Origin: an uncultured Methanosarcinales archaeon
GTDB taxonomy: Archaea; Nanobdellota; Nanobdellia; Woesearchaeales; GW2011-AR15
Length of the DNA stretch: 64,000 nt
Direction of reading: 5' to 3'
Assembly: GCA_964512765.1 (NCBI GenBank)
Contig: CAZEKF010000003.1
Coordinates: 5,249 to 69,248, forward strand
Positions 9,799 through 34,114 of this stretch are shown here, in pieces (the first letter of the stretch is position 1; each line of letters opens with the position of its first letter). The notes under the pieces are model-generated. The model was not told the origin of the DNA and made no database searches. It saw only the letters and a list, made by a program, of their open reading frames with translations. The translations under genes and the position numbers were made by a program.

Positions 9799-9839
9799 AT
9801 TAAACCCCCTTATAATACAGTAAGATTAAGGAATTTGAT

Positions 9840-11240: not shown

Positions 11241-11513
11241 ATGGCATCTGAGACATTAGAATCATTAAAAATAAAATCTGAATTTTACGAAAAATTGGTT
11301 CATGAAAAAAAACTGAAAAATGATTCCATGAACAAAATATTGTATGAAAAAAATAAACATATAATAGAACTTAACAGAAAAATTGAGTATCTTCTTCAGG
11401 AACAAAAATATGAAATCATAGAAATATTACAATCACTTAGAAAAAACGGTTTTGACGAGAACTTACTTTCACATTTCATTGAAAAATATGACATATCCGA
11501 AATTGACAAATGA
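11241..11513 (+). CDS. small K/E-rich coiled-coil protein, first gene of the rSAM operon
   Basis: 90 aa with heptad-like charged composition and no Cys. The stop overlaps the next start (ATGA). Confidence 0.5.
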   Translation: MASETLESLKIKSEFYEKLVHEKKLKNDSMNKILYEKNKHIIELNRKIEYLLQEQKYEIIEILQSLRKNGFDENLLSHFIEKYDISEIDK

Positions 11514-12004
11514 GAAAAAAACAATCATCAAAAATAGAAAAAGAAAGAGTATTAGAAAAAATCCAATTGTATAAAGAGACCATAAACGAACAAGATGATT
11601 ATTCTGGTCATTTAAACAAATTAATACTTGACAAAGATAAAGAAATTCAGAAGTTAGAAAGTAAGATACAGACTTTGATTAATAAACAAGAAAAAGAGTT
11701 GTACACTATTTTGAACCCTGTACTAAAAAAATTTTTAAAAGACCGTACTGCTGTTAAAGAAAAAGAACATGAAATGCAAGAGTTACATCTTAAAATTGAG
11801 TCAATTGAAGAAACACATAAGGAAATGATCCAGTCGCTTGAAGAAGAACATAAAAAAGAAATTGAAAAATATGAAAATATATTACGTAAAGAAAGAAAAA
11901 CTATTGGTGAGTTTAAATCATCAATATCTTACCCAATATACCAAATGTCTAGTTCTATGGGAAGAACTCAACTCGGGAAGGTTCTTCAGAAACTTTTAAA
12001 ATAG
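11510..12004 (+). CDS. K/E-rich coiled-coil protein
   Basis: 164 aa with long predicted coiled-coil segments (KEIQKLESKIQTLINKQEKEL, EEEHKKEIEKYENILRKERK) and no Cys. Confidence 0.5.
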   Translation: MRKKQSSKIEKERVLEKIQLYKETINEQDDYSGHLNKLILDKDKEIQKLESKIQTLINKQEKELYTILNPVLKKFLKDRTAVKEKEHEMQELHLKIESIEETHKEMIQSLEEEHKKEIEKYENILRKERKTIGEFKSSISYPIYQMSSSMGRTQLGKVLQKLLK

Positions 12005-12056: not shown

Positions 12057-13601
12057 TTGTTAAAGAAATTAGTGTATAAAACTAGTAAGAATAAAGAGTC
12101 TCTTGTTATACTTGGACATAATGCTGAACTGCACGATAGAATTTGTAAAACACAAGGTGATTTTGAATCTAAACTTGAAAATTTAAAAACAACATTATCT
12201 CAACCAATAACAATAGGAATTACAAGACATAATTTCTTTCTATTAGGAGAAATAATTGACTTCATTAACAAGTTCTATTATCAAGAAACTATGTTCAGGA
12301 AAGTTAAAATAACACTTTTCCCTGTGCAAGAACTAAAAACTAATTTCCTCGCATATCTAAAATACCTTAAACAAAAGTCTGGAGATAAGTTCGAGTTCAA
12401 GATAATGGACTCAAAATTGATTGAGTTGTTTGAAACTTTAGGAAATAATTCAACAGGTGATAAATATCAAGACAGAGAACTAATTAGACTGCTCGGAATT
12501 ATATCAGAACATACGTTCATTGGCCCTGAACAAATTGTAATAGATCCATTTCATAAATGTAATACTAATTGTGTACATTGTTGGAACCATGCGCCTACAT
12601 TAGATCTTACAAAAGAATGGAAAGATCAAATATTGAAACCTGATTTTTTAAAACGTTTAATAGACGACGCTGCCAGGTTAAAAGTTGATCTGTTAGTGTT
12701 CGGCGGTGCAGGTGAACCATTAATGTATCCGAAAATAATCGAAATATTTGAATACGCGTCTCAACAAGGGTTAAAGATTATTGTGTCTACCAATGGTATT
12801 AACTTAACAAAAACCATGACAAACAGGTTGTTAAATTGTAACCTGTCAGAGTTAATATGCAGTCTGCCTGCTGCTTCTAATGCAACATATGAAAAAGTTA
12901 ATCCCATGCATAAAAGTAAAAAAACTTTTGAAACAGTAGTTAAGAATCTTAAATATTTCACCAAACAAAAAACATTACTTAGCAAAAAATCAAAACTTAG
13001 CATGTACCATGTAATACATAACCTTAACTACCATGAGATTAAAAACATGGCAAAGCTTGACCTTGATATAGGTGTTGACATTGTTAGATTTAATTTAATT
13101 AGATTACAAAAAGAATTCATGCACTTGAAACTTAACAAAGCTCAATTGAATTCAATAAAAAACAGTATTGATTTTGTTAAAGCATATTACACAAATAAAC
13201 CAATAATATTACAAAACAATATACATTTCCAGATCAAGAATTTCAAGCCAGAAACAGGTGAATGGTCAGGTTCAATATTAAATGACTGGGGTTGTAAGCT
13301 TGGCTGGTTTTTTTCGTTAGTATTAGCGTCCGGCCAGTTAAGCTTGTGCTGCCATGTTAGAGAGATTGAAAATTTGAAAAATAACAATAGTTTCAAAGAA
13401 GCATGGCTTTCAAAACAATACTCAGATTACAGGTTCAAAGCTAAATATATTAAAAATCATAAAAATACAGAGTTTAAAAATAAAGTAAAGTTGTATGATG
13501 ATAAATGTGAAAATTGTGATAATCATGTTACTTTAATAAAAATTGAAGAAAAAATAAAAAAATACAATCTTGGAGAATTTTTTGAGTATAATGGCAGCTA
13601 A
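12057..13601 (+). CDS. radical SAM protein with an N-terminal extension of about 165 aa (array head gene, outlier)
   Basis: TTG start preceded by GGGGGAG. Motifs DPFHKCNTNCVHCWNH, FGGAGEPLMYP and STNG. C-terminal GCKLGWFFSLVLASGQLSLCC (Cx12Gx4C) and CENC. Confidence 0.8.
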   Translation: MLKKLVYKTSKNKESLVILGHNAELHDRICKTQGDFESKLENLKTTLSQPITIGITRHNFFLLGEIIDFINKFYYQETMFRKVKITLFPVQELKTNFLAYLKYLKQKSGDKFEFKIMDSKLIELFETLGNNSTGDKYQDRELIRLLGIISEHTFIGPEQIVIDPFHKCNTNCVHCWNHAPTLDLTKEWKDQILKPDFLKRLIDDAARLKVDLLVFGGAGEPLMYPKIIEIFEYASQQGLKIIVSTNGINLTKTMTNRLLNCNLSELICSLPAASNATYEKVNPMHKSKKTFETVVKNLKYFTKQKTLLSKKSKLSMYHVIHNLNYHEIKNMAKLDLDIGVDIVRFNLIRLQKEFMHLKLNKAQLNSIKNSIDFVKAYYTNKPIILQNNIHFQIKNFKPETGEWSGSILNDWGCKLGWFFSLVLASGQLSLCCHVREIENLKNNNSFKEAWLSKQYSDYRFKAKYIKNHKNTEFKNKVKLYDDKCENCDNHVTLIKIEEKIKKYNLGEFFEYNGS

Positions 13602-15759
13602 GACCGAAATTAATGCGCATGTAATATCTAAGCTTTTAGATAGAATTAATAATAATACAAAACAAAACTTTGTTTTGCCAAAAAAATACGTGTTTTGTAT
13701 AAATGATTCATGTTCATTCAGGTGCAAAATGTGTTTCAACTGGACTAATAAACCCCACCCTGAGTTAACATATGATGACTGGATAAGGAAACTCGAAGAA
13801 ATAAATGAATATGGTTCTGAAAATGTTGAGATTAACATTATTGGTGGTGAACCTTTAGAAATACCTTGGGTGATTGATTTAATAAAACACGCGAAACAAC
13901 TAGGTTTTATTGTAAGTTTGTCAACAAACGGGTATCATCTTAATAAAACAATGGTTAAGAAATTGTGTAACTCTGGTCTTGATGATATATCCATCTCATT
14001 AGACGGGTTTAAAGCGTCCACGCATGACTATGTAAGAGGCATAAATGGATCTTATGATAAACTTATGGAAGGTATGAAACTGTTACAATTGTATTCAAAC
14101 AGGCCTAGAATAAACATTCAAACTTTAATCATGGGATATAACATAGATGAAATTATAGATTTAACAAAGTTTGTTTCAAAATCAAAATTAGTTGATAAGG
14201 GAATAACGTTCATGGCTGTAATGAAACCTAATGATAATGTTTCTGGTAACTGGAGAACGAATTCTGAACTATGGCCAAAAGATATACCTAAAACACTAAA
14301 GACAATTAAAAAATTAATAGAGTTGAAGAAGAAAGGTTACAGAATCCTTAACTCAAATAAACAGTTAAAGGGATTTTATAATTATTTTAAAGAGCCTGAT
14401 TTGTTTGTTAAAAACAAACCATGTAATGTTAAAGATTTTGGCGCGTTCCTTGAAACAACCGGAAATGTATACATATGCCGAGAACTAGGTGAATTAGGAA
14501 ATATTAAACAAGAAAACATAATTGATGTTCTTAATTCTGACATTTCAGATATTACAAGACTAAGCATGGAAAAATGCACAGAAAATTGTAATTATCTAAT
14601 AAACTGTTTTTACCAGGACGAAGATGAAAATAATGATCCTGTTGTAAGTGTAACAAAACCTGTTAGTAAATCTGTATTACTACAACCAGACAAAAAAATT
14701 AAGTTACATACTAACCTGAAAAACGAATTACTCAATAAAAGTTACAAACCTAATTTCTGCTTGTTAATTATATCTAGGGGGTGTCATTACAAGTGTAAGA
14801 TGTGCAATTATTGGAAAGAAGATAAAAAAACTACTCCAACGTTAACTTATGACGAAATAACTACTATTGTTGATGATCTCAAAAGAATAACTGACGAAGA
14901 TATTGTTGTTCATTTAATAGGCGGTGAGTCAATGCTGTTCCCAAGGTTTGTTGATGTTGTAAAATACATACGGTCAAAAGGGTTCAGGTGTTCAGTTTCT
15001 ACTAACGCAAGTTTATTAACAAAGTCAATGGCTAAAAAATTAATAGACGCTGACATGACAGGAATTTTTGTATCCTTGGACAGTCTTGATGAAAAAAAGC
15101 ATGATTATTTACGAGGTACAAAAGGCGCGTATAAAAAAGTAATGAACGCTATTGATAACTTGTACGAGTACAAGGAAAAGGTGAAATCAAAGTTATGCAT
15201 TGGCGTAACTGTTACTATTATGCAACACAATCTCCATGATGTTATCCCAATTGTTGACTGGGCAAATGATAACCCTAAGATAAATGATGTTTTTTTTAAC
15301 GCTGTCATGCAACCGTTTGAAAATCAAGACCAGTCAAAAGACTGGTATAAAAAAGAACAGTATGAAATGATCTGGCCGCAAGATCTTAACGAAGTTCAAG
15401 AAGTTATTGAACAATTAAGAGAGCGTAAGAAAAAAGGTTGGAAAATATCTAACCCTTCATCTCAATTAAAAGTTGTTAAACAATATTTCAAAACACCGTG
15501 GAGTTATGTGAAAAATCTTGGTATTAAATGTCCGAGGGGTGATTTAGCATTAGAAGTTGACGCTTGTGGTAATATTAACATGTGTTTTTATGACGACCCA
15601 ATCGGTAACATTAGAGAAACTAACCTGTACAATGCATGGTATTCACAAAAAATGTTAGAAATCAGGGAAAGGATTAACACTTGCAGTAAAGACTGTGATC
15701 TTGCAGTGAACTGCTTTTACATGTTAAAAAATATTACAGATTATATTAGTGAGGATTGA
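13570..15759 (+). CDS. fused double radical SAM protein (two complete family modules, subgroup D)
   Basis: Module 1 has INDSCSFRCKMCFNW, IIGGEPLE and CTENCNYLINC. Module 2 has ISRGCHYKCKMCNYW, LIGGESML and CSKDCDLAVNC. The ATG at 13591 is a more likely start than the TTG at 13570. Confidence 0.85.
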   Translation: MENFLSIMAAKTEINAHVISKLLDRINNNTKQNFVLPKKYVFCINDSCSFRCKMCFNWTNKPHPELTYDDWIRKLEEINEYGSENVEINIIGGEPLEIPWVIDLIKHAKQLGFIVSLSTNGYHLNKTMVKKLCNSGLDDISISLDGFKASTHDYVRGINGSYDKLMEGMKLLQLYSNRPRINIQTLIMGYNIDEIIDLTKFVSKSKLVDKGITFMAVMKPNDNVSGNWRTNSELWPKDIPKTLKTIKKLIELKKKGYRILNSNKQLKGFYNYFKEPDLFVKNKPCNVKDFGAFLETTGNVYICRELGELGNIKQENIIDVLNSDISDITRLSMEKCTENCNYLINCFYQDEDENNDPVVSVTKPVSKSVLLQPDKKIKLHTNLKNELLNKSYKPNFCLLIISRGCHYKCKMCNYWKEDKKTTPTLTYDEITTIVDDLKRITDEDIVVHLIGGESMLFPRFVDVVKYIRSKGFRCSVSTNASLLTKSMAKKLIDADMTGIFVSLDSLDEKKHDYLRGTKGAYKKVMNAIDNLYEYKEKVKSKLCIGVTVTIMQHNLHDVIPIVDWANDNPKINDVFFNAVMQPFENQDQSKDWYKKEQYEMIWPQDLNEVQEVIEQLRERKKKGWKISNPSSQLKVVKQYFKTPWSYVKNLGIKCPRGDLALEVDACGNINMCFYDDPIGNIRETNLYNAWYSQKMLEIRERINTCSKDCDLAVNCFYMLKNITDYISED

Positions 15760-15765
15760 AAACTT

Positions 15766-16746
15766 ATGAAACAATTATTAAAATCTCCTGAACTAGTTGA
15801 GATAGTCCTTAACTATAACTGTAATTTAAAGTGTAGAATGTGTTATATTTGGAAAAGTAAAGCATTGGCAAATATTTCAATAGCTAGTTTAAAAAAAGTG
15901 ATTGACCAGATTTCTTTGTTCAAAAATAAACCAAAAATTCAGTTCTTAGGCGGTGAAACATTATTATATAAAGACCTGGTAACTGCAATTAAACATGCAT
16001 CTTATAATAAAATAAAAACTTCTGTAATAACAAACGGATTTCTACTAACAAAAGAAAAAATAATTGAGTTATCAGAAGCTGGGTTGTCAGAGATTATTCT
16101 GTCACTGGACTCGACTGATGAAAAAGTACATAATTATTTAAGGGGAAATTCGAAAAGTTATGAAAAAGTTATGAATGCTCTTACCCTGTTAAAAAAGCAC
16201 GGGCCTAGCATTAATGTGTCAATAAACTCAGTTATTACTGCTGTGAATTTGTACAATTTGATAGATTTGCACAAGTATGTTCTAAAAAAGGATCATATAT
16301 CACAGAATTATTTTGTTGTGCTTGAAAAACCGTACAATTCTAATTACAAACATAACTGGAGACATTCAAGCCCTGTTTCATATCTATGGCCGGATGATAT
16401 AAACTTGGTTAACCAGGTGTTTAACGAATTAATAAAGCTAAAACAAGAAACTAATAAAATAGGTAACACTAAATCACAGTTAAAGAAATACAAATCATAC
16501 TATCTTAACCCAGATAATTTCATTAAAAAATCTGGGTGTATGTTTGGTCATGACCATGTACTAATTAACAACAAAGGTGAAGTTTCGTTATGCGGCGGAA
16601 GCAAAGAAATTGGTAAAATTAATTCAGAAAACATTATTGAGTTATGGAACTCTGACAAAGCAAAAGTACGTAGAAAAGAAATGTTAAACTGTAAACAAAA
16701 CTGTGTCCAGATTTTAAGTTGCGTGTATAAAGATGAAGATGCTTAA
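15766..16746 (+). CDS. radical SAM / partial-SPASM paralog, subgroup A
   Basis: Motifs NYNCNLKCRMCYIW, LGGETLLYKDL, ITNG, LEKPYNSNYKHNW...YLWP, GCMFGHDHVLINNKGEVSLC and CKQNCVQILSC. Confidence 0.88.
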   Translation: MKQLLKSPELVEIVLNYNCNLKCRMCYIWKSKALANISIASLKKVIDQISLFKNKPKIQFLGGETLLYKDLVTAIKHASYNKIKTSVITNGFLLTKEKIIELSEAGLSEIILSLDSTDEKVHNYLRGNSKSYEKVMNALTLLKKHGPSINVSINSVITAVNLYNLIDLHKYVLKKDHISQNYFVVLEKPYNSNYKHNWRHSSPVSYLWPDDINLVNQVFNELIKLKQETNKIGNTKSQLKKYKSYYLNPDNFIKKSGCMFGHDHVLINNKGEVSLCGGSKEIGKINSENIIELWNSDKAKVRRKEMLNCKQNCVQILSCVYKDEDA

Positions 16747-17761
16747 CAAATTAATAGGAAAAACCAAGAAAAAGATAATCCAAATAGAACCGCATCTTGA
16801 AAGTGTATCTATTGTAGTCACTAACATGTGCAATTTTAAGTGTAAGATATGCAATTTCTGGAAAAATACTAACAAAGAAGAAATATCTATTACTGATTTA
16901 AAGAAAATTCTTGACAGTGTAGAAAAATTAAATAACGATAAGTTAGTTGTACAGTTCCACGGCGGTGAAACATTATTATATAAAGATTTGATCAAAGCTG
17001 TCCAGTACGCTACGTCTAAAGGTATAAAAACGTCTATTGTTACAAACGGATATTTTCTTAATGAGGAAAAAATTAACCAGTTAAGCAATGCAGGATTGCA
17101 TGATTTAAACATATCTCTTGATTCTATTAACAAGAACCATCATACTTTTCTTAGAGGAATACCGAACAGTCATGATAAAATAATGGATTGTATTAATTAT
17201 ATGAATAATCATCCAGAGAAACTTAATGCTAACATCAACACAGTTATTACCTCTGTTAATATAAAGAGTATTATTGCAACTTCTAGGTTTGTAAATCATC
17301 AAAAAGGTCTGAAAAACATTTATTTTATAGCTTTAGAAAAACCGTATCTAACAAATTATGACAAGAACTGGAGAAAAACAAAACAAGTTGGTTATCTCTG
17401 GCCAAAAGATAAGAAACTAATTAAGAACGTGTTCAAAAATCTTATTACTGAAAAAAAACAAAACAATAAAATCAGTAACTCTATCACACAATTAAAAAAA
17501 TATTGTTCGTATTACTTAAACCCAAGCAAGAACCTGGCAACTCATGACTGTATTTTCGGATACCTTCATTTACATATAAACAGTCTAGGCCAGTTCAGGT
17601 TATGTGCAAACAGGCATGATCTTGATCCAATCGGATTTTTGCCAGAATCTAATATTTACGACGCATGGAAGTCTGGTAAAGCGCAATGGATCAGGAAAAG
17701 AATGCAAGAATGCAAACAAAATTGTGTGTTAAATTTAAGTTGTGTGTATAAAGATGAGTAA
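16733..17761 (+). CDS. radical SAM / partial-SPASM paralog, subgroup A
   Basis: Motifs TNMCNFKCKICNFW, HGGETLLYKDL, LEKPYLTNYDKNW...YLWP and CKQNCVLNLSC. Confidence 0.88.
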   Translation: MKMLNKLIGKTKKKIIQIEPHLESVSIVVTNMCNFKCKICNFWKNTNKEEISITDLKKILDSVEKLNNDKLVVQFHGGETLLYKDLIKAVQYATSKGIKTSIVTNGYFLNEEKINQLSNAGLHDLNISLDSINKNHHTFLRGIPNSHDKIMDCINYMNNHPEKLNANINTVITSVNIKSIIATSRFVNHQKGLKNIYFIALEKPYLTNYDKNWRKTKQVGYLWPKDKKLIKNVFKNLITEKKQNNKISNSITQLKKYCSYYLNPSKNLATHDCIFGYLHLHINSLGQFRLCANRHDLDPIGFLPESNIYDAWKSGKAQWIRKRMQECKQNCVLNLSCVYKDE

Positions 17762-18827
17762 CAGGTTAAAATTATTTCAAAAAATGTATAATCTTACTAA
17801 AAAACCAGATATCTTTTCACAAGATAATTTAACAGAACCATTACCTGCTCCAAGACATGTGTTAGTAGTGTTGCATAATTATTGCAATTTTAAGTGTAAG
17901 ATGTGTAAAGTATGGGACAAAAAAGATTCTGAAAAAATGTCTTTAAAAACATTGTATAAAATAATAAAAGACATTAGTAAATTCAAGAGTAAAGATTTAA
18001 TACTTCATTTTATTGGCGGTGAAACTTTGTTGTTCAAAGACCTTGATAAAGCTATCGCGTATGCTATGCGTAACAGGTTAACTGTTGATATCACTACAAA
18101 TGGGTATGCTCTTAATAAAAATAAAATAATAGCATTGTCTGAAGCAGGTTTAAGAAATATTAATCTTTCCCTTGATTCAAATGAAAAAGAAGTTCATAAT
18201 GAATTAAGAGGTGTCAAGGATAGTTATCAAAAAATTATGAAAGCTATTCCTCTTCTTGGAAAATACGGGAAAAACATTAATGTTAGCATTAATACAGTTA
18301 TTAATTCATTAAACCTTTCCACATTAATCTCGTTATGTAAATATGTTAAACAGGAAAAACATCTTAAAAATTTATATTTTATTGCAATGGAAAAACCGTT
18401 TGAATCAAATTATGATAATGATTGGAGAAAAACAAGCGATGTTGCATATCTATGGCCAGATAATCCAGATAAAATTAATTATGTTTTTGATGCATTGGTC
18501 AAAGAAACGCAAATTAATGAAAAAATTGGGAACACAGTTTCCCAGTTAAACGCGTATAAAAGTTATTACATTCACCCTGATAAATTCATAAAAAAGCTCG
18601 GGTGCAGGTCAGGTTGCACAAACCTTGAGATTAACATGCTCGGTGAAATTTTTCTTTGTGTCCCTAACCCAAAACTTGGAAGATTAGGTAACATTGATTC
18701 AGAAAACATAGTTCAGTTATGGAACTCAGAAAAGGCTTTCCTAATAAGGCAGGAAATGATGTTATGCAAGAATAATTGTTTGCAAGTGTTAAGCTGTGGC
18801 GAGTATGATGAAGAGGTGTTGACATAA
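17742..18827 (+). CDS. radical SAM / partial-SPASM paralog, subgroup A
   Basis: Motifs HNYCNFKCKMCKVW, IGGETLLFKDL, MEKPFESNYDNDW...YLWP and CKNNCLQVLSC. An alternative ATG at 17754 is in frame. Confidence 0.88.
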   Translation: MCIKMSNRLKLFQKMYNLTKKPDIFSQDNLTEPLPAPRHVLVVLHNYCNFKCKMCKVWDKKDSEKMSLKTLYKIIKDISKFKSKDLILHFIGGETLLFKDLDKAIAYAMRNRLTVDITTNGYALNKNKIIALSEAGLRNINLSLDSNEKEVHNELRGVKDSYQKIMKAIPLLGKYGKNINVSINTVINSLNLSTLISLCKYVKQEKHLKNLYFIAMEKPFESNYDNDWRKTSDVAYLWPDNPDKINYVFDALVKETQINEKIGNTVSQLNAYKSYYIHPDKFIKKLGCRSGCTNLEINMLGEIFLCVPNPKLGRLGNIDSENIVQLWNSEKAFLIRQEMMLCKNNCLQVLSCGEYDEEVLT

Positions 18828-18831
18828 AAAA

Positions 18832-19833
18832 ATGATATTAAAAAAAGGTTTAATGTCTAAACAATCTTTATCAGATAAAATTAATGTTTACATATACTTT
18901 GACAAAGCTTGTTTGTTTAAATGCAAACATTGTTTTTTATGGAAAAAAGATATTGGGTTTAACACGATAAAAACTAATGATTGGATGATGATTTTAGAAG
19001 ATATTTTTAGTTTGTTTCACAGCAATATCAGAGTCTGTTTAGGCGGAGATGGTATGTCCCTTACAGAAGAACTGTTCTTTCCAATTATTAAAAAATGTAC
19101 TGAACTTGGTTTTGAAACTGAGTTAGCATCAAATTGTTATCTAATCAATGATAAAATACTTAAGAAATTAATTGCATACGGACTTGACACACTTGTAATT
19201 TCACTTGACTATTTAACAGAAGAAAAACACGATCTTCAGAGAGGTGTCCAAGGAAGTTATCGTCATGCTATTAAGATAATTAAAAAGAGTAAAAAACTTC
19301 CTTTAAAGATTCAATCTAACTGTATCATTATGAAACCAAATCTTGATGAGATAATACCACTTGCAAAAAAAATTGCTTCAATTAATAATGAAATTACACT
19401 TCATTTCCAGGCATTAGTACAACCTTTCAATACAGAATGCAATGAAAACTGGCATGAAACGTTTAGTGATTTATGGCCAAATAACGACACAACTGTCCTT
19501 GAAGTACTTGATGAGTTAATTAAATTAAAAATGTCAGGATATAAAATAGGTAATAACACAGACCAGATCAACTCTTTTAAATCTTATTTTAAAGATCCTA
19601 GTAAAAGCATAAGAACAAAATGTAATGTTAAAGATGTTAGTTTTCACATTCATTCTAACGGAAGATTACGAAAATGTGATTATATGGAAGATATTGGTTT
19701 TATTAATAAAGACAATTCTTTTAAGGATTTAATATTTTCAAACCAGTATAAAAAAGTCACTGAAAAAATGAGGAACTGTACAAAAAATTGTATATTAATG
19801 GTGAATTGTAACTATGAAAAAGAAAAAAGTTAA
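18832..19833 (+). CDS. radical SAM / partial-SPASM paralog, subgroup B
   Basis: Motifs DKACLFKCKHCFLW, LGGDGMSL, IIMKPNLDE, QALVQPFN...LWP and CTKNCILMVNC. Confidence 0.88.
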   Translation: MILKKGLMSKQSLSDKINVYIYFDKACLFKCKHCFLWKKDIGFNTIKTNDWMMILEDIFSLFHSNIRVCLGGDGMSLTEELFFPIIKKCTELGFETELASNCYLINDKILKKLIAYGLDTLVISLDYLTEEKHDLQRGVQGSYRHAIKIIKKSKKLPLKIQSNCIIMKPNLDEIIPLAKKIASINNEITLHFQALVQPFNTECNENWHETFSDLWPNNDTTVLEVLDELIKLKMSGYKIGNNTDQINSFKSYFKDPSKSIRTKCNVKDVSFHIHSNGRLRKCDYMEDIGFINKDNSFKDLIFSNQYKKVTEKMRNCTKNCILMVNCNYEKEKS

Positions 19834-20680
19834 ACTAATTCCAACACTGGAAACTAATTGTAAAAATGTTTTGTTTATTGATAAAAAAGTAGAAAAAACT
19901 ATGTTGAAACTAAGTGACTGTGCAAGTTTATTCAAGTCACTGTCTAATCATAAAGATCAGTTTAACATTATCATTGGCGGTGGCGAACCTTTATTGCACC
20001 CAGAAATTATGGACATGGTTAAATTATGCAAAAAGAATGGCTTAAATTGTTCTTTAGAAACAAATGGGTTATTACTTAAAAAAAATATTATTGATCAGTT
20101 AATTAAACACGGTTTGGATACTCTCATCCTCCCGCTTGAATCTGTTAACCCAAGAACGCATAATTTTATCTGGAACAACCAAGATCTGTTTGAAATTATC
20201 TGGGAAGCTATAGATCATTTATCATACAAGTATGAAAACAGTGCAAAACTAATTTTTAAATGTACAATAATGAAACAGAACTTGCGTGAAATATTACCTA
20301 CTATGGGCTGGGTCATTAACTTTAATTATGCAAAAATAAAATTTTTGCCTATCTCACCAGATTCTAGCAAAGACAAGGAATGGCACACTAAAAAACCTTA
20401 CATCAGCGCCTGGCCAAAAAACAAAGAGATATTTGAAAAAACAATGGATTATTTAAATAAAACAAAACTAAATTATCCGGGTATATTAATTAATGAATTA
20501 GATGATTTTTATAGTTTCAAAAAATATTATTTTGACCATAAAAACTGGGTAATGACACCGGGTTCTTTTGAAGATGATACAATGTATGTTAATCCAGACA
20601 GTTCTGTACTATTTCAAAACAAAACTATCGGAAACATTAGTAAGGAATCATTAATAAAAATATTACAAAAAATAAAATAG
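19814..20680 (+). CDS. pseudo-radical-SAM paralog (family fold retained, all Fe-S Cys motifs absent)
   Basis: Intact 288-aa ORF with IIGGGEPLLHPE, ETNG, LPLESVNPRTHNF and EWHTKKPYISAWP. It has no CX3CX2C, no Cx12Gx4C and no C-terminal Cx3Cx5C. Confidence 0.8.
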   Translation: MKKKKVKLIPTLETNCKNVLFIDKKVEKTMLKLSDCASLFKSLSNHKDQFNIIIGGGEPLLHPEIMDMVKLCKKNGLNCSLETNGLLLKKNIIDQLIKHGLDTLILPLESVNPRTHNFIWNNQDLFEIIWEAIDHLSYKYENSAKLIFKCTIMKQNLREILPTMGWVINFNYAKIKFLPISPDSSKDKEWHTKKPYISAWPKNKEIFEKTMDYLNKTKLNYPGILINELDDFYSFKKYYFDHKNWVMTPGSFEDDTMYVNPDSSVLFQNKTIGNISKESLIKILQKIK

Positions 20681-20690
20681 TTTCATAGTT

Positions 20691-21785
20691 ATGAATTTTA
20701 CAATTAAAAAACGTTTGATAACAGAATTTGCAAAAAGAGCATATGATAGCCAAGTATACAGTCTTGATTATTTGAATGTTAATATCATTGAAGGTTGTAT
20801 TTCAAAGTGTATTATGTGTGATTTATGGAAAAATAAAGTAAAAAAACTCAGCTTTGCTGATTTTTCAAAAGCGCTCGACATTATTTCATCTCATCTTTCT
20901 TTATCAAAAGATATTATGATTAGCATTGGCGGCCACGGAGAACCAATGATGAACTCTGATATTTTTGAAATTATTAAATTATGCAAAAATAAAGGATTCT
21001 CTACTAGCTTGGTAACAAATTCATTGTTAATAACAAAAAATAGTGCGTATAGCTTGATATCAAGTGGGTTGGCACATATAAATTTCTCATTTGAAAGTAT
21101 AGACACTAAGATTAATGATCTGATTAGAAATGCCAAAGGCCATCATAAAAAAGTTTTGAAATCAATCGAACTTTTGCATAAGTTAAAGCAAAAACATAAT
21201 AAAAAATGTGATCTTGGTTTTCTAACAACTGTTTGTGCAAAAAATATCTGTTCAATTCCAGATTTAGTTAGGTATGTGAACAACAATCCAATGATATCTT
21301 CTATAAGGTTCCAAGCAATTACCCAACCTTTTGGCGCGTCGCCTGTTAAAAACTGGCACACCAACCAAAAATATGCGTTCCTATGGCCTAAAAAATCTGA
21401 TGTGGAAAAAGTGTACAATTTTTTAATTAAAATAAAAAATAGTTCAAAAATTGAAAATTCGTTAAGGTCATTAAAAACTCAGAAAACGTACTTTTTAAAT
21501 CCTGGTAAATATAACAAACATATATCCAAAACTTGTAATGTTTACCAAGGTGCTATAATGAATGTTAATGGTGATATAACAGTATGTCCTATGGGCGAAA
21601 ATATTTTTACTCCTATTGGAAAAAATGTGATTATTAATATTAATAATGAAAAACCAAACGTATACTTGATTAGGAAGAGATTGCTTAAAATTCAAAATCT
21701 TGTTAAAAAATGCAGCATGAACAATTGTCATATAATGTTAAACTGTAATTATACAGGCAAAGAACAATTTTATGATAAGATTTAA
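20691..21785 (+). CDS. radical SAM / partial-SPASM paralog, subgroup C
   Basis: Motifs IEGCISKCIMCDLW, GGHGEPMMN, VTNSLL, QAITQPFG...FLWP and CSMNNCHIMLNC. Confidence 0.88.
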   Translation: MNFTIKKRLITEFAKRAYDSQVYSLDYLNVNIIEGCISKCIMCDLWKNKVKKLSFADFSKALDIISSHLSLSKDIMISIGGHGEPMMNSDIFEIIKLCKNKGFSTSLVTNSLLITKNSAYSLISSGLAHINFSFESIDTKINDLIRNAKGHHKKVLKSIELLHKLKQKHNKKCDLGFLTTVCAKNICSIPDLVRYVNNNPMISSIRFQAITQPFGASPVKNWHTNQKYAFLWPKKSDVEKVYNFLIKIKNSSKIENSLRSLKTQKTYFLNPGKYNKHISKTCNVYQGAIMNVNGDITVCPMGENIFTPIGKNVIININNEKPNVYLIRKRLLKIQNLVKKCSMNNCHIMLNCNYTGKEQFYDKI

Positions 21786-21799
21786 CCGAGGATGGACAT

Positions 21800-22861
21800 A
21801 TGACAGTTCTTAAAACAAAAAAAGTTGTAAGGTTAGAAAATAAGTTAACAAAAAACCTTCAATCTAATACATTATTGTATAATAAAGAAGTTAAAAAAGT
21901 CACGCTTCTTTTTGGTTCGCGATGTGTTTTCAAATGTAAGCATTGTTTTAATTGGCGGTTTAAAAATAATTTTGACAGGATATCACTTGAAGAATGGATA
22001 TCTTTACTTGAAAATATTAAGAAGCTAAACAAAGGTAAGGTAAAAATCGATATTGGTGCTAGTGGTATGGCATTGTTAAGCGAATATTTAATACCTGTTG
22101 TAATGAAATGCAATCAACTTGGGTATAAAATTTTATTGAACACTAACGGTTATCTTTTTAATGAAAGAATTGTAAAAAAGCTTGTTAAATCTGGTTTAAA
22201 CAAATTTTCAATATCAATAGATTTTTTTTCTCCGAAAAAACATGATGATCAAAAAGGCATGGTGAACAGTCATAAACACGCACTTAATTTAATCAGATAC
22301 GTAAAAAAACACAGCGGTTCTAACAGGATCAGTATAAGTACGATTATTATGAAACCAAACCTTAACGAATTAGTTCCCTTGATAAAATGGACAAATTCAA
22401 TGAACATCCCAATTTTTTTTCAAGCAATTACGCAACCTTACAATACACCAGATCAAAAGTATTGGTATAAAGATAATAAGTATAAAAACCTGTGGCCAGG
22501 TGATAGCAAGAAAATGTCAACCATTCTTGATAAAATCATTGAACTCAGAAAAAAAGGTTATAACGTTGGGAATGATGTTAACCATTTACATGCTTTAAAA
22601 AAATATTTTTTATATCCTCAAAAAAGAATAATGCCAACTTGTAACATAAACAATGTTGGGTTATTGATTGACTCTTCAGGTTGCGTGAAAGCATGTCCAT
22701 ACATGGAAAATATTGATAATCTGCGCAATGTTCCAATAACTTCACTGGTTGAGTCTCAAAAATATATAAAAACTATAAATAAAATGTGTGACTGTCCAAC
22801 AAATTGTGCGCAAATGATAAACTGTAGTTATAAAGATTATCCTGTTTCATTAATAGAGTAA
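21800..22861 (+). CDS. radical SAM / partial-SPASM paralog, subgroup B
   Basis: GAGGA about 12 nt upstream of the ATG. Motifs GSRCVFKCKHCFNW, IIMKPNLNE, QAITQPYN...NLWP and CPTNCAQMINC. Confidence 0.88.
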   Translation: MTVLKTKKVVRLENKLTKNLQSNTLLYNKEVKKVTLLFGSRCVFKCKHCFNWRFKNNFDRISLEEWISLLENIKKLNKGKVKIDIGASGMALLSEYLIPVVMKCNQLGYKILLNTNGYLFNERIVKKLVKSGLNKFSISIDFFSPKKHDDQKGMVNSHKHALNLIRYVKKHSGSNRISISTIIMKPNLNELVPLIKWTNSMNIPIFFQAITQPYNTPDQKYWYKDNKYKNLWPGDSKKMSTILDKIIELRKKGYNVGNDVNHLHALKKYFLYPQKRIMPTCNINNVGLLIDSSGCVKACPYMENIDNLRNVPITSLVESQKYIKTINKMCDCPTNCAQMINCSYKDYPVSLIE

Positions 22862-22866
22862 TAAAA

Positions 22867-23886
22867 ATGCTAAGAAAATTATTAAAACATAAAAGAAAAG
22901 TAAAACCTTTAGTTCCTGCACCTCAATCTGTTGTTATTGGTTTGAATAACGCCTGTAACTTCAAATGCAAAATGTGCCATATTTGGAAAAATAAAAATGT
23001 TATTGAGATTCCTTTAAAAAAAATTATTAATATCATTGACCAAGTAAGTTTGTTTAATAATAAAGATTTAGTGTTACAGTTTCATGGTGGAGAAACTTTA
23101 CTTTATAAAGATTTAACAAAAGCAATTTCTTATGCATCAAAAAAAAATATTAAAACTGCTATTGTAACAAACGGATTTTTTCTTGACCAAAAAAAGATTA
23201 TTGAGTTAAATCAAGCAGGATTACACAGTTTGAACATTTCACTGGATTCAATTGAAAAAGATGTTCATAATGAGTTGAGAGGAATAAAGAATAGTTATCA
23301 AAAAATTATGCAAGCCATTGAATTCCTCGGTGAATATAATCACAACATGATTGTTGGAATAAACACAATTATTCATTCTTTAAACATTACAAAACTAGTT
23401 GAGATTAGTAGATTTGTAAAAGATAACCAGAATGTTTCAAACCTTTATTTCATATCACTGGAAAAACCTTATGAATCTGATTATGACAATTCGTGGTATG
23501 ATAGCAGTCCTGCATCTTATTTATGGCCTACAAATAAAGATGTAATCAATCAAGCGTTTGATGCATTGAAAATTGAGAAATTCACTAATAAAAAAATTAC
23601 TAACAAAAGCACTCAACTTGAAAAGTATAAAGAATATTATCTGAACCCAGATAATTTCATTAAAAAGTACGGGTGCAAATTTGGTCAGATTCAGATTCAC
23701 ATTAATTATTCCAATGAAGTACGATTATGTACTATCAGGCCTGAACTGGAACCAATTGGAACAATAGATGATAACCTTATCACTATCTGGAACTCTGAAA
23801 AAGCAAAACTGATCAGGCGTCAAATGACAAACTGTAAAAAAAACTGTATATTAATCTTAAGTTGTGGGTTTGAAGATGAGGAATAA
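22867..23886 (+). CDS. radical SAM / partial-SPASM paralog, subgroup A
   Basis: Motifs NNACNFKCKMCHIW, HGGETLLYKDL, LEKPYESDYDNSW...YLWP and CKKNCILILSC. Confidence 0.88.
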   Translation: MLRKLLKHKRKVKPLVPAPQSVVIGLNNACNFKCKMCHIWKNKNVIEIPLKKIINIIDQVSLFNNKDLVLQFHGGETLLYKDLTKAISYASKKNIKTAIVTNGFFLDQKKIIELNQAGLHSLNISLDSIEKDVHNELRGIKNSYQKIMQAIEFLGEYNHNMIVGINTIIHSLNITKLVEISRFVKDNQNVSNLYFISLEKPYESDYDNSWYDSSPASYLWPTNKDVINQAFDALKIEKFTNKKITNKSTQLEKYKEYYLNPDNFIKKYGCKFGQIQIHINYSNEVRLCTIRPELEPIGTIDDNLITIWNSEKAKLIRRQMTNCKKNCILILSCGFEDEE

Positions 23887-23947
23887 ATTATCAACTGAAG
23901 ATTTAAAAACAAATACCTTATCTGTTAAAAGAAGATAAAATACAAAA

Positions 23948-25051
23948 ATGAATCAAACAAAACAGTTCAAAAATAAAATAAAACCTGAGTTTGCATGTAT
24001 TGGGATAACAGATTATTGTTTTTTCAAGTGTAAAATGTGCAATAAATGGCAGGAAGATATAAAAGTTATAAAAGGCACGCCTCGTCCAACATTTGAACAA
24101 TATAAACTGTTCATAGAAGATCTTGCATATTTAGTAAGAGACGATCTAAAAGGACCAGTTGACAACAGGTTCACGTTAAACTTTGCCGGTGGTGAAGCAT
24201 TGACACATTCAATGACTCTTCCTCTTGTTGAATATGCTGCTAAATTAGGGTTTAAAACACTTATTGCTACAAACGGAAGTATGCTCACTGAACATATGAT
24301 AAAAAGACTTAACCAAGCTAAACTTACCTCTCTAAGCATATCATTAGACAGTTTAGATCCAGAAATACATGATTCATTACGAGGTTACAAAGGCGCGACA
24401 AAATTTATCATGGCTGCTCTTGAACATTTAAAAAAGTATGAATATCCAAAAGTTGGAATTTGTACAGTAATAAACAAAAAAACATACAAAGGAATTCCTG
24501 AACTTGTTAACTGGGCGAGAAAACATGAAACTGTAAAATGGCTTTATTTCATGGCAGTCATGCAGCCTAACAACACAGTTTTTGAACCAGGATGGTATAA
24601 AACTGATCAGTTTAAGTTTTTATGGGAAAACAAGTCAGAGAAAGTTATTGAAATTATTGATTATCTTATCAAAGAAAAGATTGTTGAAGATGAAGCTGTA
24701 AAAAATAATAACCTCAAACAACCTTTGTTAACAAACAACTTCTCTCAGTTAAAAGCTTTCCGGGATTATTTCGCTAATCCTGAAACGTTTGTAAAAAGCA
24801 ACTCGTGTTGTAACATGGACCTGGCAATACAAACAACTGAAGTAGGCGATATTTTCATGTGTTTTCATAAAAAAAGGATAGGTAACATACGGGAAAATAG
24901 ATTAAAAGATGTTTGGAATACTGATGGATCTGATGTGACAAGAGAAGATATTAAATCATGCACAACAAACTGTCACACTCTTTTAAACTGTTACTATGAA
25001 AATGAATATCCTTTTGAAATTATCAAAACCATAAAATCCAGTTTAAAATAA
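23948..25051 (+). CDS. radical SAM / partial-SPASM paralog, subgroup D
   Basis: Motifs TDYCFFKCKMCNKW, AGGEALTH, ATNG, MAVMQPNN...FLW and CTTNCHTLLNC. Confidence 0.88.
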   Translation: MNQTKQFKNKIKPEFACIGITDYCFFKCKMCNKWQEDIKVIKGTPRPTFEQYKLFIEDLAYLVRDDLKGPVDNRFTLNFAGGEALTHSMTLPLVEYAAKLGFKTLIATNGSMLTEHMIKRLNQAKLTSLSISLDSLDPEIHDSLRGYKGATKFIMAALEHLKKYEYPKVGICTVINKKTYKGIPELVNWARKHETVKWLYFMAVMQPNNTVFEPGWYKTDQFKFLWENKSEKVIEIIDYLIKEKIVEDEAVKNNNLKQPLLTNNFSQLKAFRDYFANPETFVKSNSCCNMDLAIQTTEVGDIFMCFHKKRIGNIRENRLKDVWNTDGSDVTREDIKSCTTNCHTLLNCYYENEYPFEIIKTIKSSLK

Positions 25052-25056
25052 AAAAA

Positions 25057-26049
25057 ATGCAAGTATTAAAACCTGTTTATTCAGATATTGGTATCATTGA
25101 ATCGTGTAATTTTAAATGCATTATGTGTAAAATGCACGAAATACCTTTTCCAAAAAAAGATGCAATGATTCCAATACAAAGATGGAAACTTTTTTTTCAA
25201 CATATGAAAGAAATAGCGGGTGAAGGGTTTGTGTTTAATATGCCAGGAGGCGAACCTTTGTTACATCCAGACGTGTTTGATATCATAAAAATCGCGTCAA
25301 CTAATGGTCTGAAACCATTGTTATCAACAAACGCGTTTTTAATTAACAAACAAATAGCTGATAAACTCATAAAAAACGGTTTATTTGGAGTTACAATTTC
25401 TTTAGACAGTTCAATTCCAGATGTACATGATCAAATAAGAGGAGTGAGAGAAAGTTTTGATAAAGTTGAACAAGCAATAAGATACCTTGATTTTCACAGT
25501 AAAATCTACAACGCAAAGGTTAGTATTGGCATCCAGTCAGTTATACAAATGTCTAACCTGGATAATATTCCTGATTTGGTTCAGTATGTTGAAAACAATC
25601 CTTTGATTGAAAGAATTAATTTAAACTTATTAATGAGACCTAACAATTCTAAGGAGGATAAGGAATGGTACAAGAACGAGTTCAAGGAATTGTGGCCTGA
25701 TGATTCTGATAAAGTTGATCAGATAATAGATGAATTAGTTGAATTAAAAGCTAAAAATAAAGTTCAAAAATTGTTGAACACAATAACACAGCTTAAATCA
25801 TACAAAGAATATTTCCGTGATCCAAAAAAAACACCAAAATTGTTAAGTTGCAATTATGACAAAGCCATCTGTACAAATAGTTCAGGCGACATTCATCTGT
25901 GCTTTCATTATGATAAGATAGGTAATATCAATACAGACAGGTTAATTGATGTCTGGAATTCAAAACAAGCAAAAACTGTTCGTGAAAAAATTAAGAATTG
26001 TCACGTAACAGACTGTTGGTTCAGATTAAATTGTTTATACAGTGATTAA
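25057..26049 (+). CDS. radical SAM / partial-SPASM paralog, subgroup D
   Basis: Motifs IESCNFKCIMCKMH, PGGEPLLHPD, STNA, LLMRPNN...ELWP and CHVTDCWFRLNC. Confidence 0.88.
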   Translation: MQVLKPVYSDIGIIESCNFKCIMCKMHEIPFPKKDAMIPIQRWKLFFQHMKEIAGEGFVFNMPGGEPLLHPDVFDIIKIASTNGLKPLLSTNAFLINKQIADKLIKNGLFGVTISLDSSIPDVHDQIRGVRESFDKVEQAIRYLDFHSKIYNAKVSIGIQSVIQMSNLDNIPDLVQYVENNPLIERINLNLLMRPNNSKEDKEWYKNEFKELWPDDSDKVDQIIDELVELKAKNKVQKLLNTITQLKSYKEYFRDPKKTPKLLSCNYDKAICTNSSGDIHLCFHYDKIGNINTDRLIDVWNSKQAKTVREKIKNCHVTDCWFRLNCLYSD

Positions 26050-27118
26050 TAAAATGTTACAATATTTACAAACAGAGGTTAATAAGTTCTTAGCAAACAT
26101 TAGAATGACAAATCAAGCTTCCGGTGTGAAAAAAGAAATTATCTTTCCCGTAAGTAACAAACCAAAACAAATTTCATTATTATTTTCGCATCGTTGTTTG
26201 TTCAAGTGCAAACAATGTTTTCTGTGGAAAAGAGAAAATAATTATGAACCGTTAAAGTTAGACACGTGGAGTACATTATTAAAAGATCTCAAAAAAATAT
26301 ATGGTTCTAACTTAAATATTCAAATTGGTGGAGACGGTATGGCAGAGATAAATGAAAAACTTATCACAATAATAAAAACCTGTTCTGAACTTGGACTTCA
26401 TACTGTATTCACTACCAATGCTTATTTAGTTAATAGAAGAATCCTAAAACGAATAGTTGATGAAGCTGGTTTGAAAAATCTGTTATTTTCACTTGATTAT
26501 ATGGTAGCTGAAAAACATGATAATCAAAGAGGAATAAAATATAGTTATAAGCATGTGCTTGATTTACTAGAACATGTTGAAAAATATGAAAATCTAGAAA
26601 TTGTTTTAAGTTGCATTATAATGAAACCTAATCTTGATGAAATATTAGATATTGTTAAATTTGTTGATCAGTTAAAACAAGTGGATAGGGTCTTTTTTCA
26701 GGTAATTTCTCAACCTATGGGCTTAAACTTTGACTATAATTGGTATAAAGATAAAAAATTCTGTTTTCTCTGGCCTGATAAAGATAAAGCTGCCCGGATC
26801 ATTGATGAACTTATTACGTTGAAGAAAAATGGTTCAAAGATAGCTAATTCACTCAATCATTTAAGATATTTTAAATATTATTTTTTGAATCCTAACAAAT
26901 ATATAAAAGACAACAGATGCAATGCTGAAGACCTTGGCATGGAAATTGGCATTGATGGCAATGTCAGTATATGTAACAAAATGAGAAATCTGGGTTCTTT
27001 AAAAAAACATTCAATTTCAGAGTTATTAGCCATGAACTATAAAAGTATTGCTGGAGAGATATCAAACTGTTCTCTAAACTGTCATCAGGTTATGAATTGC
27101 AGGTTTTCAGAAGAGTGA
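26042..27118 (+). CDS. radical SAM / partial-SPASM paralog, subgroup B (tandem duplicate copy 1)
   Basis: Motifs SHRCLFKCKQCFLW, IGGDGMAE, IIMKPNLDE and CSLNCHQVMNC. The track start is a GTG. The in-frame ATG at 26054 (MLQYLQ...) is more likely. Confidence 0.88.
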   Translation: MINKMLQYLQTEVNKFLANIRMTNQASGVKKEIIFPVSNKPKQISLLFSHRCLFKCKQCFLWKRENNYEPLKLDTWSTLLKDLKKIYGSNLNIQIGGDGMAEINEKLITIIKTCSELGLHTVFTTNAYLVNRRILKRIVDEAGLKNLLFSLDYMVAEKHDNQRGIKYSYKHVLDLLEHVEKYENLEIVLSCIIMKPNLDEILDIVKFVDQLKQVDRVFFQVISQPMGLNFDYNWYKDKKFCFLWPDKDKAARIIDELITLKKNGSKIANSLNHLRYFKYYFLNPNKYIKDNRCNAEDLGMEIGIDGNVSICNKMRNLGSLKKHSISELLAMNYKSIAGEISNCSLNCHQVMNCRFSEE

Positions 27119-28191
27119 TTAATAAAATGTTACAATATTTACAAATAGAGGTTAGTAAGTTTTTAGCAAATATTGGAGTAACAAAACCTGCTTCATTTAT
27201 TAAAAAAGAAATTATCAATCCAGTAAGCGAAAAACAAAAGCAAATTTCATTATTATTTTCGCATCGTTGTTTGTTCAAGTGCAAACAATGTTTTCTGTGG
27301 AAAAGAGAAAATAATTATGAACCGTTAAAGTTAGACACGTGGATTACATTATTAAAAGATCTTAAAAAAGTGTATGGTCATAACCTAAAAATTGAAATTG
27401 GTGGAGATGGTATGGGTGAGGTAAATGAAGGTCTTCTCACAATAATAAAAACCTGTTCTGACCTAGGATTTAATACAACGTTCACAACAAATGCTTATTT
27501 AATAAACAGGAGGATCCTAAAACGAATAATTGATGAAACAGGTTTGAAATGTCTAGTGTTCTCTCTTGACTACACGACTCCTGAAAAACATGATAATCAA
27601 AGAGGCATGAACAATAGTTATAAGCATGTGCTTGATTTACTTGAACATGTTAAAGCGTTTGAAGTACAAGAAGTTGTATTAAGTTGTATTATCATGAAAC
27701 CTAATCTTAGCGAACTAATACAAATTACAAAGTTTGTTGATCAATCAAAACAAATAACACAAGTACAGTTCCAGGCTATTGCTGAACCTCTTGGGCTTGC
27801 ATTTTCTGAACCTTGGTTCCAAGATAAAAACTACAGTTATTTATGGCCTGGCACATCAAAAGTTACAAAAGTTATTGATAATTTAATTGAAATGAAAAAA
27901 AAAGGATCAAAAATTGCTAATTCTATTAGTCAGTTAAATTATTTTAAACATTATTTTAAACATCCTTTAAAATACGCAAAAAAAAATAGTTGTAATGCTG
28001 AAAATCTTGGCATGGAAATTGATGTTGATGGTCAAGTGAGTATTTGTAACAGAATGAAAAAGTTGGGTTCATTAAAACAACATTCAATCTCTGAGTTGTT
28101 GGCAATAAATTATAAAATATTAGCTAAAGAAATATCAAACTGTTCTCTGAACTGTCACCTCATCATGAACTGCAGGTTTTCAGAAGAATAA
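27097..28191 (+). CDS. radical SAM / partial-SPASM paralog, subgroup B (tandem duplicate copy 2)
   Basis: Motifs SHRCLFKCKQCFLW, IGGDGMGE, IIMKPNLSE and CSLNCHLIMNC. By homology with copy 1 the real start is probably the ATG at 27127 (MLQYLQ...). Confidence 0.88.
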   Translation: MQVFRRVINKMLQYLQIEVSKFLANIGVTKPASFIKKEIINPVSEKQKQISLLFSHRCLFKCKQCFLWKRENNYEPLKLDTWITLLKDLKKVYGHNLKIEIGGDGMGEVNEGLLTIIKTCSDLGFNTTFTTNAYLINRRILKRIIDETGLKCLVFSLDYTTPEKHDNQRGMNNSYKHVLDLLEHVKAFEVQEVVLSCIIMKPNLSELIQITKFVDQSKQITQVQFQAIAEPLGLAFSEPWFQDKNYSYLWPGTSKVTKVIDNLIEMKKKGSKIANSISQLNYFKHYFKHPLKYAKKNSCNAENLGMEIDVDGQVSICNRMKKLGSLKQHSISELLAINYKILAKEISNCSLNCHLIMNCRFSEE

Positions 28192-28223
28192 TTATATAAA
28201 ACAATAAATAATGTACAAAAACA

Positions 28224-34112: not shown

Positions 34113-34114
34113 AA

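Follow-up and report, generated by a model that had tools for sequence, protein, structure and literature searches.

One gene in a long array of genes for radical S-adenosylmethionine (SAM) proteins (rSAM) encodes a family member in which all of the cysteine motifs of the rSAM/SPASM enzymes have been lost. The array lies in a 64,000-nt stretch of contig CAZEKF010000003.1 from an uncultured archaeon, hereafter called the window, and the gene is referred to here as the pseudo-rSAM gene and its product as the focal protein. We conclude that the focal protein is very probably a selected, non-catalytic protein. A retained but catalytically dead paralog had been proposed earlier in a reading of the DNA alone (the sequence-only reading), and this central idea is supported by the loss of the ligands, by the existence of a clade of equally cysteine-less relatives, by a signature of selection and by the predicted fold. 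We further consider it probable that the protein serves the catalytic paralogs encoded around it as a non-catalytic subunit or partner, in a system that modifies surface glycans, while a physical partnership with those paralogs is a more tentative proposal, for which we would claim somewhat less than even confidence.

Translation of the open reading frame (ORF) gave every family landmark that had been quoted for it, namely IIGGGEPLLHPE, ETNG, LPLESVNPRTH, EWHTKKPYISAWP and FKKYYFD, and the position of the HDxxRG motif does read HNFIWN. In an alignment of 13 array paralogs, where its identity to the array neighbours is 20–26%, only the focal protein is without two of the three CX3CX2C cysteines, the lost positions being occupied by Leu and Asp or by Leu and Val according to the alignment used. 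It alone also has neither of the upstream SPASM/twitch cysteines and no C-terminal CxxxCxxxxxC, its chain stopping about 35 residues short, at the point where the paralogs run on into this last motif, and all five family-conserved SPASM cysteine positions are absent or substituted. The losses claimed from the sequence alone are thus confirmed by the alignment, position by position, and by Pfam; the cysteines of TNCKN and SDCAS are also present as described, but five cysteines remain in total (residues 16, 36, 72, 79 and 150) rather than two. The Pfam match to Radical_SAM (PF04055; 58.4 bits versus a threshold of 29.5) covers residues 31–138 and begins at profile position 28 (of 28–138 matched), that is, past the cluster loop, and no Pfam match to the SPASM domain (PF13186) was found in the protein. 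Neither a CX3CX2C nor a SPASM remnant occurs in the other reading frames at either end of the ORF, and an upstream extension carrying the CX3CX2C was looked for and not found, the upstream room being taken by a paralog with a complete C-terminus of its own. Holding neither the rSAM [4Fe-4S] cluster nor an auxiliary cluster, the focal protein would not generate a 5′-deoxyadenosyl radical.

Relatives were sought by word index and, exhaustively, with HMMER in 1.84 billion representatives. Four further lineages with the clade signature PL[ED][ST]VN were found, making five in all, and GW.[IA]NF is present in four of the five. All of them are metagenomic, and in every case the pseudo-rSAM gene is part of an rSAM array of the same type. 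The closest relative (P0002), from a Candidatus Woesearchaeota metagenome-assembled genome (MAG; locus L001), is 40% identical to the focal protein; the contig truncates it at the 5′ side, and it has the same C-terminal end point, no SPASM cysteines, and LPLESVNP and GWVINFNYAKI in common with the focal protein. The relative at locus L012 (P0096; 261 aa) is full length and has no triad; it reads IQPDHL at the GGE position and AEKY at the TNG position, and has two cysteines in total, one of which is the penultimate residue. Further members are P0094 (L013–L015), with a called ORF of 173–175 aa, and P0106 (L020), assigned by its PLDSVN motif, by tblastn and by its best BLAST hit. All array domains of the window, L012, L001 and L013 were placed in a neighbour-joining tree. 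The four cysteine-less proteins among them group in a single clade, distinct from all of the catalytic ones, and the catalytic paralogs match one to one between genomes; the L020 member was assigned to the cysteine-less clade afterwards. On this tree the array is evidently an old paralog set, of which the pseudo-rSAM gene is one orthogroup. Since the focal protein and P0096 both lack the triad, its loss presumably took place in the ancestor of the clade or earlier. Short matches confined to the GGE–TNG region in Spirochaetota and Clostridiaceae MAGs (L007–L009, from a scan of genome contigs) and two distant loci (L010 and L011, from a scan of metagenome contigs) did not prove to be clade members.

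The check by dN/dS that the sequence-only reading had suggested could not be made in its formal version, the synonymous divergence (dS) estimated by NG86 being undefined versus L001 and saturated (1.6–2.7) versus L012, and selection was instead gauged from codon-position identity and from a neutral simulation of stop codons. In all six clade pairs identity is highest at second codon positions (0.60–0.68), intermediate at first positions (0.46–0.55) and lowest at third positions (0.31–0.47). When the AT-rich focal gene was allowed to evolve neutrally, about 3 stop codons had arisen on average by 0.05 substitutions per site, where the probability of finding none was 0.047; this probability was 0.004 at 0.1 substitutions per site, and at 0.2 or more a stop-free frame was obtained in none of 5000 runs. 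The frame is nevertheless open over 288 codons in the window, 261 in L012 and at least 231 in L001, where the contig sets the limit. Open frames at saturated dS, taken with the simulation, call for purifying selection over almost the whole period since the lineages diverged, and by these measures the pseudo-rSAM gene is not a recent pseudogene.

An AlphaFold2 model built on a 73-sequence alignment predicts with confidence that the focal protein keeps the rSAM fold (mean per-residue confidence, pLDDT, 90.7; predicted TM score, pTM, 0.89), with six beta/alpha units and a C-terminal hairpin. The model is poor only at residues ~11–30, where the cluster loop is expected, and the loop remnant (residues 12–23) combines the lowest confidence with the least conservation in the clade. 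Foldseek searches of the PDB with this model returned rSAM enzymes only, at TM scores of about 0.7 (BlsE, viperin, MoaA, anSME, SkfB, SuiB and DesII), and even for P0096, the most degenerate intact member, the model reaches a pTM of 0.78, its core scoring above 90 and its termini being weak.

Where constraint lies within this fold differs between the cysteine-less and the catalytic members, as is seen when the pseudo-rSAM pair of the window and L012 is set against the catalytic pairs W06 and W07 of the same genomes (W denoting paralogs of the window array). Identity in the pseudo-rSAM pair is 0.16 over beta1, the loop and alpha1 (catalytic pairs 0.32–0.36), 0.25 over beta2–beta3 (0.40–0.42), 0.32 in beta4 (0.44–0.60), 0.31 in the W..WP region (0.39–0.54) and 0.12 in the hairpin (0.21–0.31), whereas over alpha4–beta6 it reaches 0.54 (0.39–0.48), and for the same segment the window and L001 are 0.61 identical. 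The core of residues 100–180 is 46–61% identical within the clade, above the catalytic orthologs of the same genome pairs. Judged from these comparisons, constraint has moved: the cofactor half has been released and alpha4–beta6 is held more tightly than in the catalytic orthologs. Survival of the remaining motifs is patchy, with GGE and TNG in the focal protein, TNG and RG in P0002, TNG and HDHIRG in L020, and none in P0096 and L013. GGE itself has disappeared from the orthologs at L012, L013 and L020, and in L001 it is seen only in part, the contig breaking off at EP. Independent erosion following a single loss of catalysis would explain such a pattern. The C-terminal ends also become progressively shorter across the clade. 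A single loop cysteine seems to be conserved between the focal protein (TNCKN) and P0096 (ESCKS), but no weight was placed on it, the alignment of L013 being ambiguous at this point.

Multidomain proteins are frequent in the wider family, where 44 of 149 representatives have two or three domains. A scan of 286 family domains for the triad identified two independent cases in which a cysteine-less domain stands beside an intact one in a single polypeptide. In P0109 (L016:1380–3389) it is the N-terminal domain that lacks the triad and has GGPD for GGE, and its start is real, 27 nt past the preceding gene; P0122 (L018:6001–10482) consists of a GT2 domain, a coiled coil of about 500 residues, a pseudo-domain reading TSENNLECSLADMS and then a catalytic domain. 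That dead domains have repeatedly been tethered to live ones argues for joint action of these paralogs, in which a copy without clusters can be of use, and we think it rather likely that the focal protein is the free-standing counterpart of these fused pseudo-domains. A more far-reaching extension is that the glycan-locus rSAM arrays of these uncultivated, DPANN-like microbes are multi-subunit paralog assemblies in which recurrent cluster-free domains, those of the present clade and of P0109 and P0122, are obligate partners that position a polymeric substrate, which we put forward as a speculation that will probably not hold in full.

The explanation that we favour is that the focal protein is a folded, non-catalytic descendant of the surrounding rSAM/SPASM enzymes. 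A small clade would have lost the cluster motifs in its common ancestor. The cofactor-binding N-terminal half would then have drifted, as GGE, TNG and HDxxRG wore away separately in different lineages, while the beta4-alpha4-beta5-alpha5-beta6 core and the family-specific W...WP region would have stayed under selection. The protein may then serve as a structural subunit or partner of at least one catalytic array paralog, either stabilising it or binding the substrate and handing it on. With the gene recently gone from at least one lineage, its function would be an accessory one.

Several observations weigh against this explanation, and some of them favour a slowly decaying, functionless relic of which the window copy simply has no stop codon as yet. 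The L020 ortholog (L020:8001–8681) is decayed: it has lost about 50 N-terminal residues, so that it starts at beta2 directly after the stop of the upstream gene, and it contains two in-frame stops, a TAA at codon 112 (8334) and a TGA at codon 130 (8388), the latter in place of the clade-invariant Phe177. In L013 (L013:1–830) there is an in-frame TGA at about nt 42, or else the protein is shortened to 175 aa; the frame is open and homologous up to the contig start, 87 codons past the called ORF, and there is no canonical start before nt 303. This TGA may be a nonsense mutation, reflect a shortened protein or be recoded, and may represent a second case of loss. Random decay, which the sequence-only reading had named as the sign of a plain pseudogene, is therefore seen in L020 and perhaps in L013, though not in the window, L012 or L001. 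The nonsynonymous divergence (dN) of the focal gene is moreover at the high end of the array: it is 0.75 versus L012, above the 0.19–0.57 of the catalytic orthologs of the same pair, and 0.62 versus L001, where W514 reaches 0.61 and W13 only 0.23. GGE, TNG and HDxxRG erode progressively and independently, the C-termini grow ever shorter, and split catalytic paralogs also occur in such arrays, as at L016:4489–5520, where one is divided into ORFs of 65 aa (with CMLRCKMC) and 267 aa by decay or by sequencing error. The clade is also rare, with five lineages only in the very large databases searched. An exact-sequence look-up found the unaltered focal protein on metagenomic contigs of JGI, ENA and Logan assemblies, at least 24 in number, and at the five places fetched the DNA agrees with that of the window to 99.7% or more; these contigs thus represent one population, uninformative on selection, and were rejected for dN/dS. 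Nor does gene order single out a fixed partner, as the flanking paralogs vary by genome: the pseudo-rSAM gene lies between W04 and W06 in the window, between W01 and W06 in L012, between W11 and W13 in L020, and before W13 in L001. Against decay as the general explanation stands the prediction that, at saturated dS and a dN of at least 0.6, a neutral gene would have acquired more than 10 stop codons, a stop-free frame being already rare at the second of the simulated distances, whereas the copies in the window, L012 and L001 are open. Codon-position identity has the order expected under selection in all pairs, alpha4–beta6 is more conserved than in the catalytic orthologs, and the predicted fold is confident. 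The 12 genes around the L020 copy are intact with ordinary stop codons, and two stops amount to less than 0.05 neutral substitutions per site, which makes the loss there recent and lineage-specific. A functionless relic is therefore unlikely in our view, and the decay in L020 together with the TGA in L013 rather indicates a gene that is selected and yet dispensable.

Two further explanations would leave the focal protein with a cofactor. It could be a cluster-free binder of SAM or of a related nucleotide, acting as a sensor, a regulator or a non-radical SAM-using enzyme, given that it keeps GGGE, ETNG, the E-S of beta4 and Asn156 of beta5, that P0002 keeps TNG, the beta4 E-S and Asn156 (its GGE being truncated by the contig end), that the barrel is predicted to be intact and that the structural neighbours BlsE, viperin, MoaA and DesII bind nucleotides or nucleotide-sugars. 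However, rSAM enzymes anchor SAM mainly by chelation to the unique iron of the cluster, and this anchor is absent from the focal protein; constraint within the clade is weakest over the N-terminal half; and GGE and TNG were reported as lost in the otherwise conserved P0096, L013 and L020 members, although the tally of motifs given above has L020 keeping TNG. We regard such a binder as quite improbable. Still less credible, and in our estimation close to negligible, is that the protein remains an rSAM enzyme with its cluster on non-canonical ligands. Five cysteines are left to it, one of them in the loop and common with P0096, but the clade has no set of three conserved cysteines, P0096 retains only two, and the loop is the part least conserved and predicted with the lowest confidence. 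The selected, non-catalytic partner thus remains the reading that we prefer.

Concerning known families, the nearest are the catalytic array paralogs themselves and the families P0003–P0008, which have the fold, the array and the strand in common with the focal protein at 20–30% identity, and share with it the landmarks W190, W200-P201, Y238, N156 and the D/E-S of beta4; the focal protein differs from them in missing three sets of cysteine motifs, in forming a clade of its own and in its inverted pattern of constraint. Pseudo-rSAM proteins had been cited as known, and named NCBIfam families do exist, such as TIGR04347 (haloarchaeal pseudo-SAM/SPASM) and TIGR04150, which is named 'pseudo-rSAM', but the focal protein is not a member. 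It had 48 NCBIfam matches, all far below the cut-offs, and neither of these two families was among the best 25. Like the focal protein, both are non-canonical rSAM homologs beside catalytic rSAM genes; unlike them, it has also lost the SPASM cysteines, lies in a glycan locus and belongs to a host lineage that is apparently a DPANN-type archaeon. TIGR04150 partners the rSAM protein TIGR04148 in Bacteroidales GG-leader peptide cassettes (PMC4573289). The kind of protein is thus already annotated by name, and the focal clade is a new variant of it. Among structures, BlsE (7vob), viperin (5vsl, 9dgw), MoaA (1tv7, 2fb2) and anSME (4k36–4k39) were the best Foldseek matches (TM 0.65–0.71), and BlsE was also the best PDB match in sequence; these enzymes bind [4Fe-4S] and SAM, unlike the focal protein, and are 14–17% identical to it. 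A viperin-like role in defence (pVip) was considered and rejected, the score with NF038283 being 46 bits versus a cut-off of 180 and the PADLOC pVip matches reflecting the common rSAM core only. By analogy only, pairs of pseudokinases and kinases may be compared, in which catalytic residues have likewise been lost while the fold and selection on other surfaces are kept, with active paralogs alongside.

The gene neighbourhood gives the array its most plausible function. Other genes of the window encode a PMT_2 protein, a GT4 and two GT2 glycosyltransferases, a polysaccharide deacetylase, a spermine-synthase-like protein, two carbamoyltransferases and several TPR proteins. Homologous arrays with one-to-one orthologs of the window paralogs (68–70% identity for W13, 70% for W09 and 74% for the C-terminal domain of W729) are present at L001, L012, L016, L018/L019 and L020; that of L001 lies beside a GT2 gene and that of L016 beside PMT_2, those of L018 and L019 lie beside a Wzt-type ABC transporter gene with a Wzt_C domain and a methyltransferase gene, and that of L020 beside Wzm/Wzt, arylsulfotransferase and GT2 genes. 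With glycan genes beside the window array and its relatives, a system that modifies an exported surface glycan is most plausible. The setting of a peptide-modification cassette, which had been suggested from the sequence alone, was not borne out, the loci having GT2/GT4, PMT_2, Wzm/Wzt, deacetylase, carbamoyl- and sulfotransferase genes. A cassette for a ribosomally synthesised and post-translationally modified peptide was rejected in particular: no precursor-like ORF is present, the small ORFs upstream encode coiled coils and the flanks encode glycan enzymes. The two upstream ORFs are rich in K and E and had no Pfam or NCBIfam match. Coiled coils are also fused to rSAM domains in P0091 (with KARDEEI repeats) and in P0122, so that the association may recur. 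The 678-aa protein convergent with the end of the array has a single match, a weak one to a spermine/spermidine-synthase domain over residues ~259–378. The two carbamoyltransferases, both full length with Carbam_trans_N and Carbam_trans_C domains, would be consistent with carbamoylated sugars in the product.

The array is in itself more striking than the pseudo-rSAM gene. It is composed of a 514-aa rSAM gene, a 729-aa two-domain fusion and 13 single-domain paralogs of 288–367 aa, of which the focal gene is the fifth, and most of its genes match SPASM besides Radical_SAM in Pfam; no NCBIfam model reached its cut-off for any array paralog tested. Including the three B12-binding and three other rSAM genes outside the array, the window, which has a G+C content of about 29%, encodes at least 22 rSAM domains, an exceptional density, and the GT2/GT4, PMT_2, deacetylase, carbamoyltransferase and TPR genes are interspersed among them. 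W11 and W12 are recent tandem duplicates (79% nucleotide and 72% protein identity; dN 0.19, dS 0.64). The 729-aa gene, the 514-aa gene and W04 were called as split ORFs in near-identical population variants as a result of indels (L006:3749–5946; L004:2219–3753 and 9026–10020), which could be real strain variants or assembly errors. At the focal gene itself, the overlap with W04 and the Shine–Dalgarno-like motif can be seen directly, whereas the translational coupling claimed from them can only be presumed; 10 nt separate the focal stop from the ATG of the next paralog. The coordinates of these features are collected in Table 1.

Table 1. Features of the pseudo-rSAM gene and its surroundings in the window
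Feature	Position	Strand	Remarks
Pseudo-rSAM ORF	19814..20680	+	ATG start; 288 aa; predicted rSAM partial-barrel fold
Shine–Dalgarno-like GGTGA	19800..19804	+	9 nt 5′ of the ATG, within the 3′ end of the upstream paralog; motif read directly, putative function
Overlap of focal gene start and upstream paralog end	19814..19833	+	20 nt, read in the sequence
Cluster-binding loop remnant	19847..19882	+	Residues 12–23, LETNCKNVLFID; one of three cysteines (C16) left
GGGE, SAM amino-group 'GGE' motif	19976..19987	+	Residues 55–58; kept in the focal protein
Conserved core	20111..20353	+	Residues 100–180; beta4 LPLESVNP, alpha4 FE..W..ID, beta5, alpha5-beta6 GWVINFNYAKIKF
Cysteine-free twitch/SPASM beta-hairpin remnant and terminal helix	20549..20677	+	Residues 246–288
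Co-directional rSAM array	12057..29231	+	15 genes, 16 rSAM domains, all matching Pfam Radical_SAM
Catalytic array paralogs	15766..29231	+	Compared with the focal protein
729-aa protein	13570..15759	+	Natural fusion of two rSAM domains
Upstream catalytic paralog W04	18832..19833	+	Complete, with its own SPASM C-terminus
Downstream catalytic paralog W06	20691..21785	+	W06-type gene also 3′ of the pseudo-rSAM ortholog in L012
W11	26042..27118	+	Tandem duplicate
W12	27097..28191	+	Tandem duplicate
Coiled-coil ORF 5′ of array	11241..11513	+	90 aa
Coiled-coil ORF 5′ of array	11510..12004	+	164 aa
rSAM genes outside the array	6495..7901, 32811..35197, 36332..37756, 47871..48950, 49877..51217		Listed with the array
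678-aa protein	29241..31277	-	Spermine-synthase-like
Carbamoyltransferase	58277..59983	-	Full length
Carbamoyltransferase	61390..63126	-	Full length

Pseudoenzymes of the rSAM kind are known as annotation labels, and a literature search of limited scope found none with a described role, nor any work specific to such pseudoenzymes or to tandem arrays of rSAM genes, be it in DPANN archaea or in glycan loci. The clade described here amounts to a natural experiment, in which all three clusters have been removed from an rSAM fold, constraint has been relocated and independent parallels exist in fused form. If the alpha4–beta6 face is an interface, it would show how arrays of rSAM paralogs and their fusions cooperate, and would give a handle on an unusually large, uncharacterised system of radical chemistry acting on surface glycans in genome-reduced archaea. 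If the speculative assemblies with obligate cluster-free partners prove real, this would be the first pseudoenzyme–enzyme pairing principle for rSAM carbohydrate chemistry. Should the role of the protein turn out to be marginal, the clade would still record the stages through which a pseudoenzyme erodes, up to the death of the gene.

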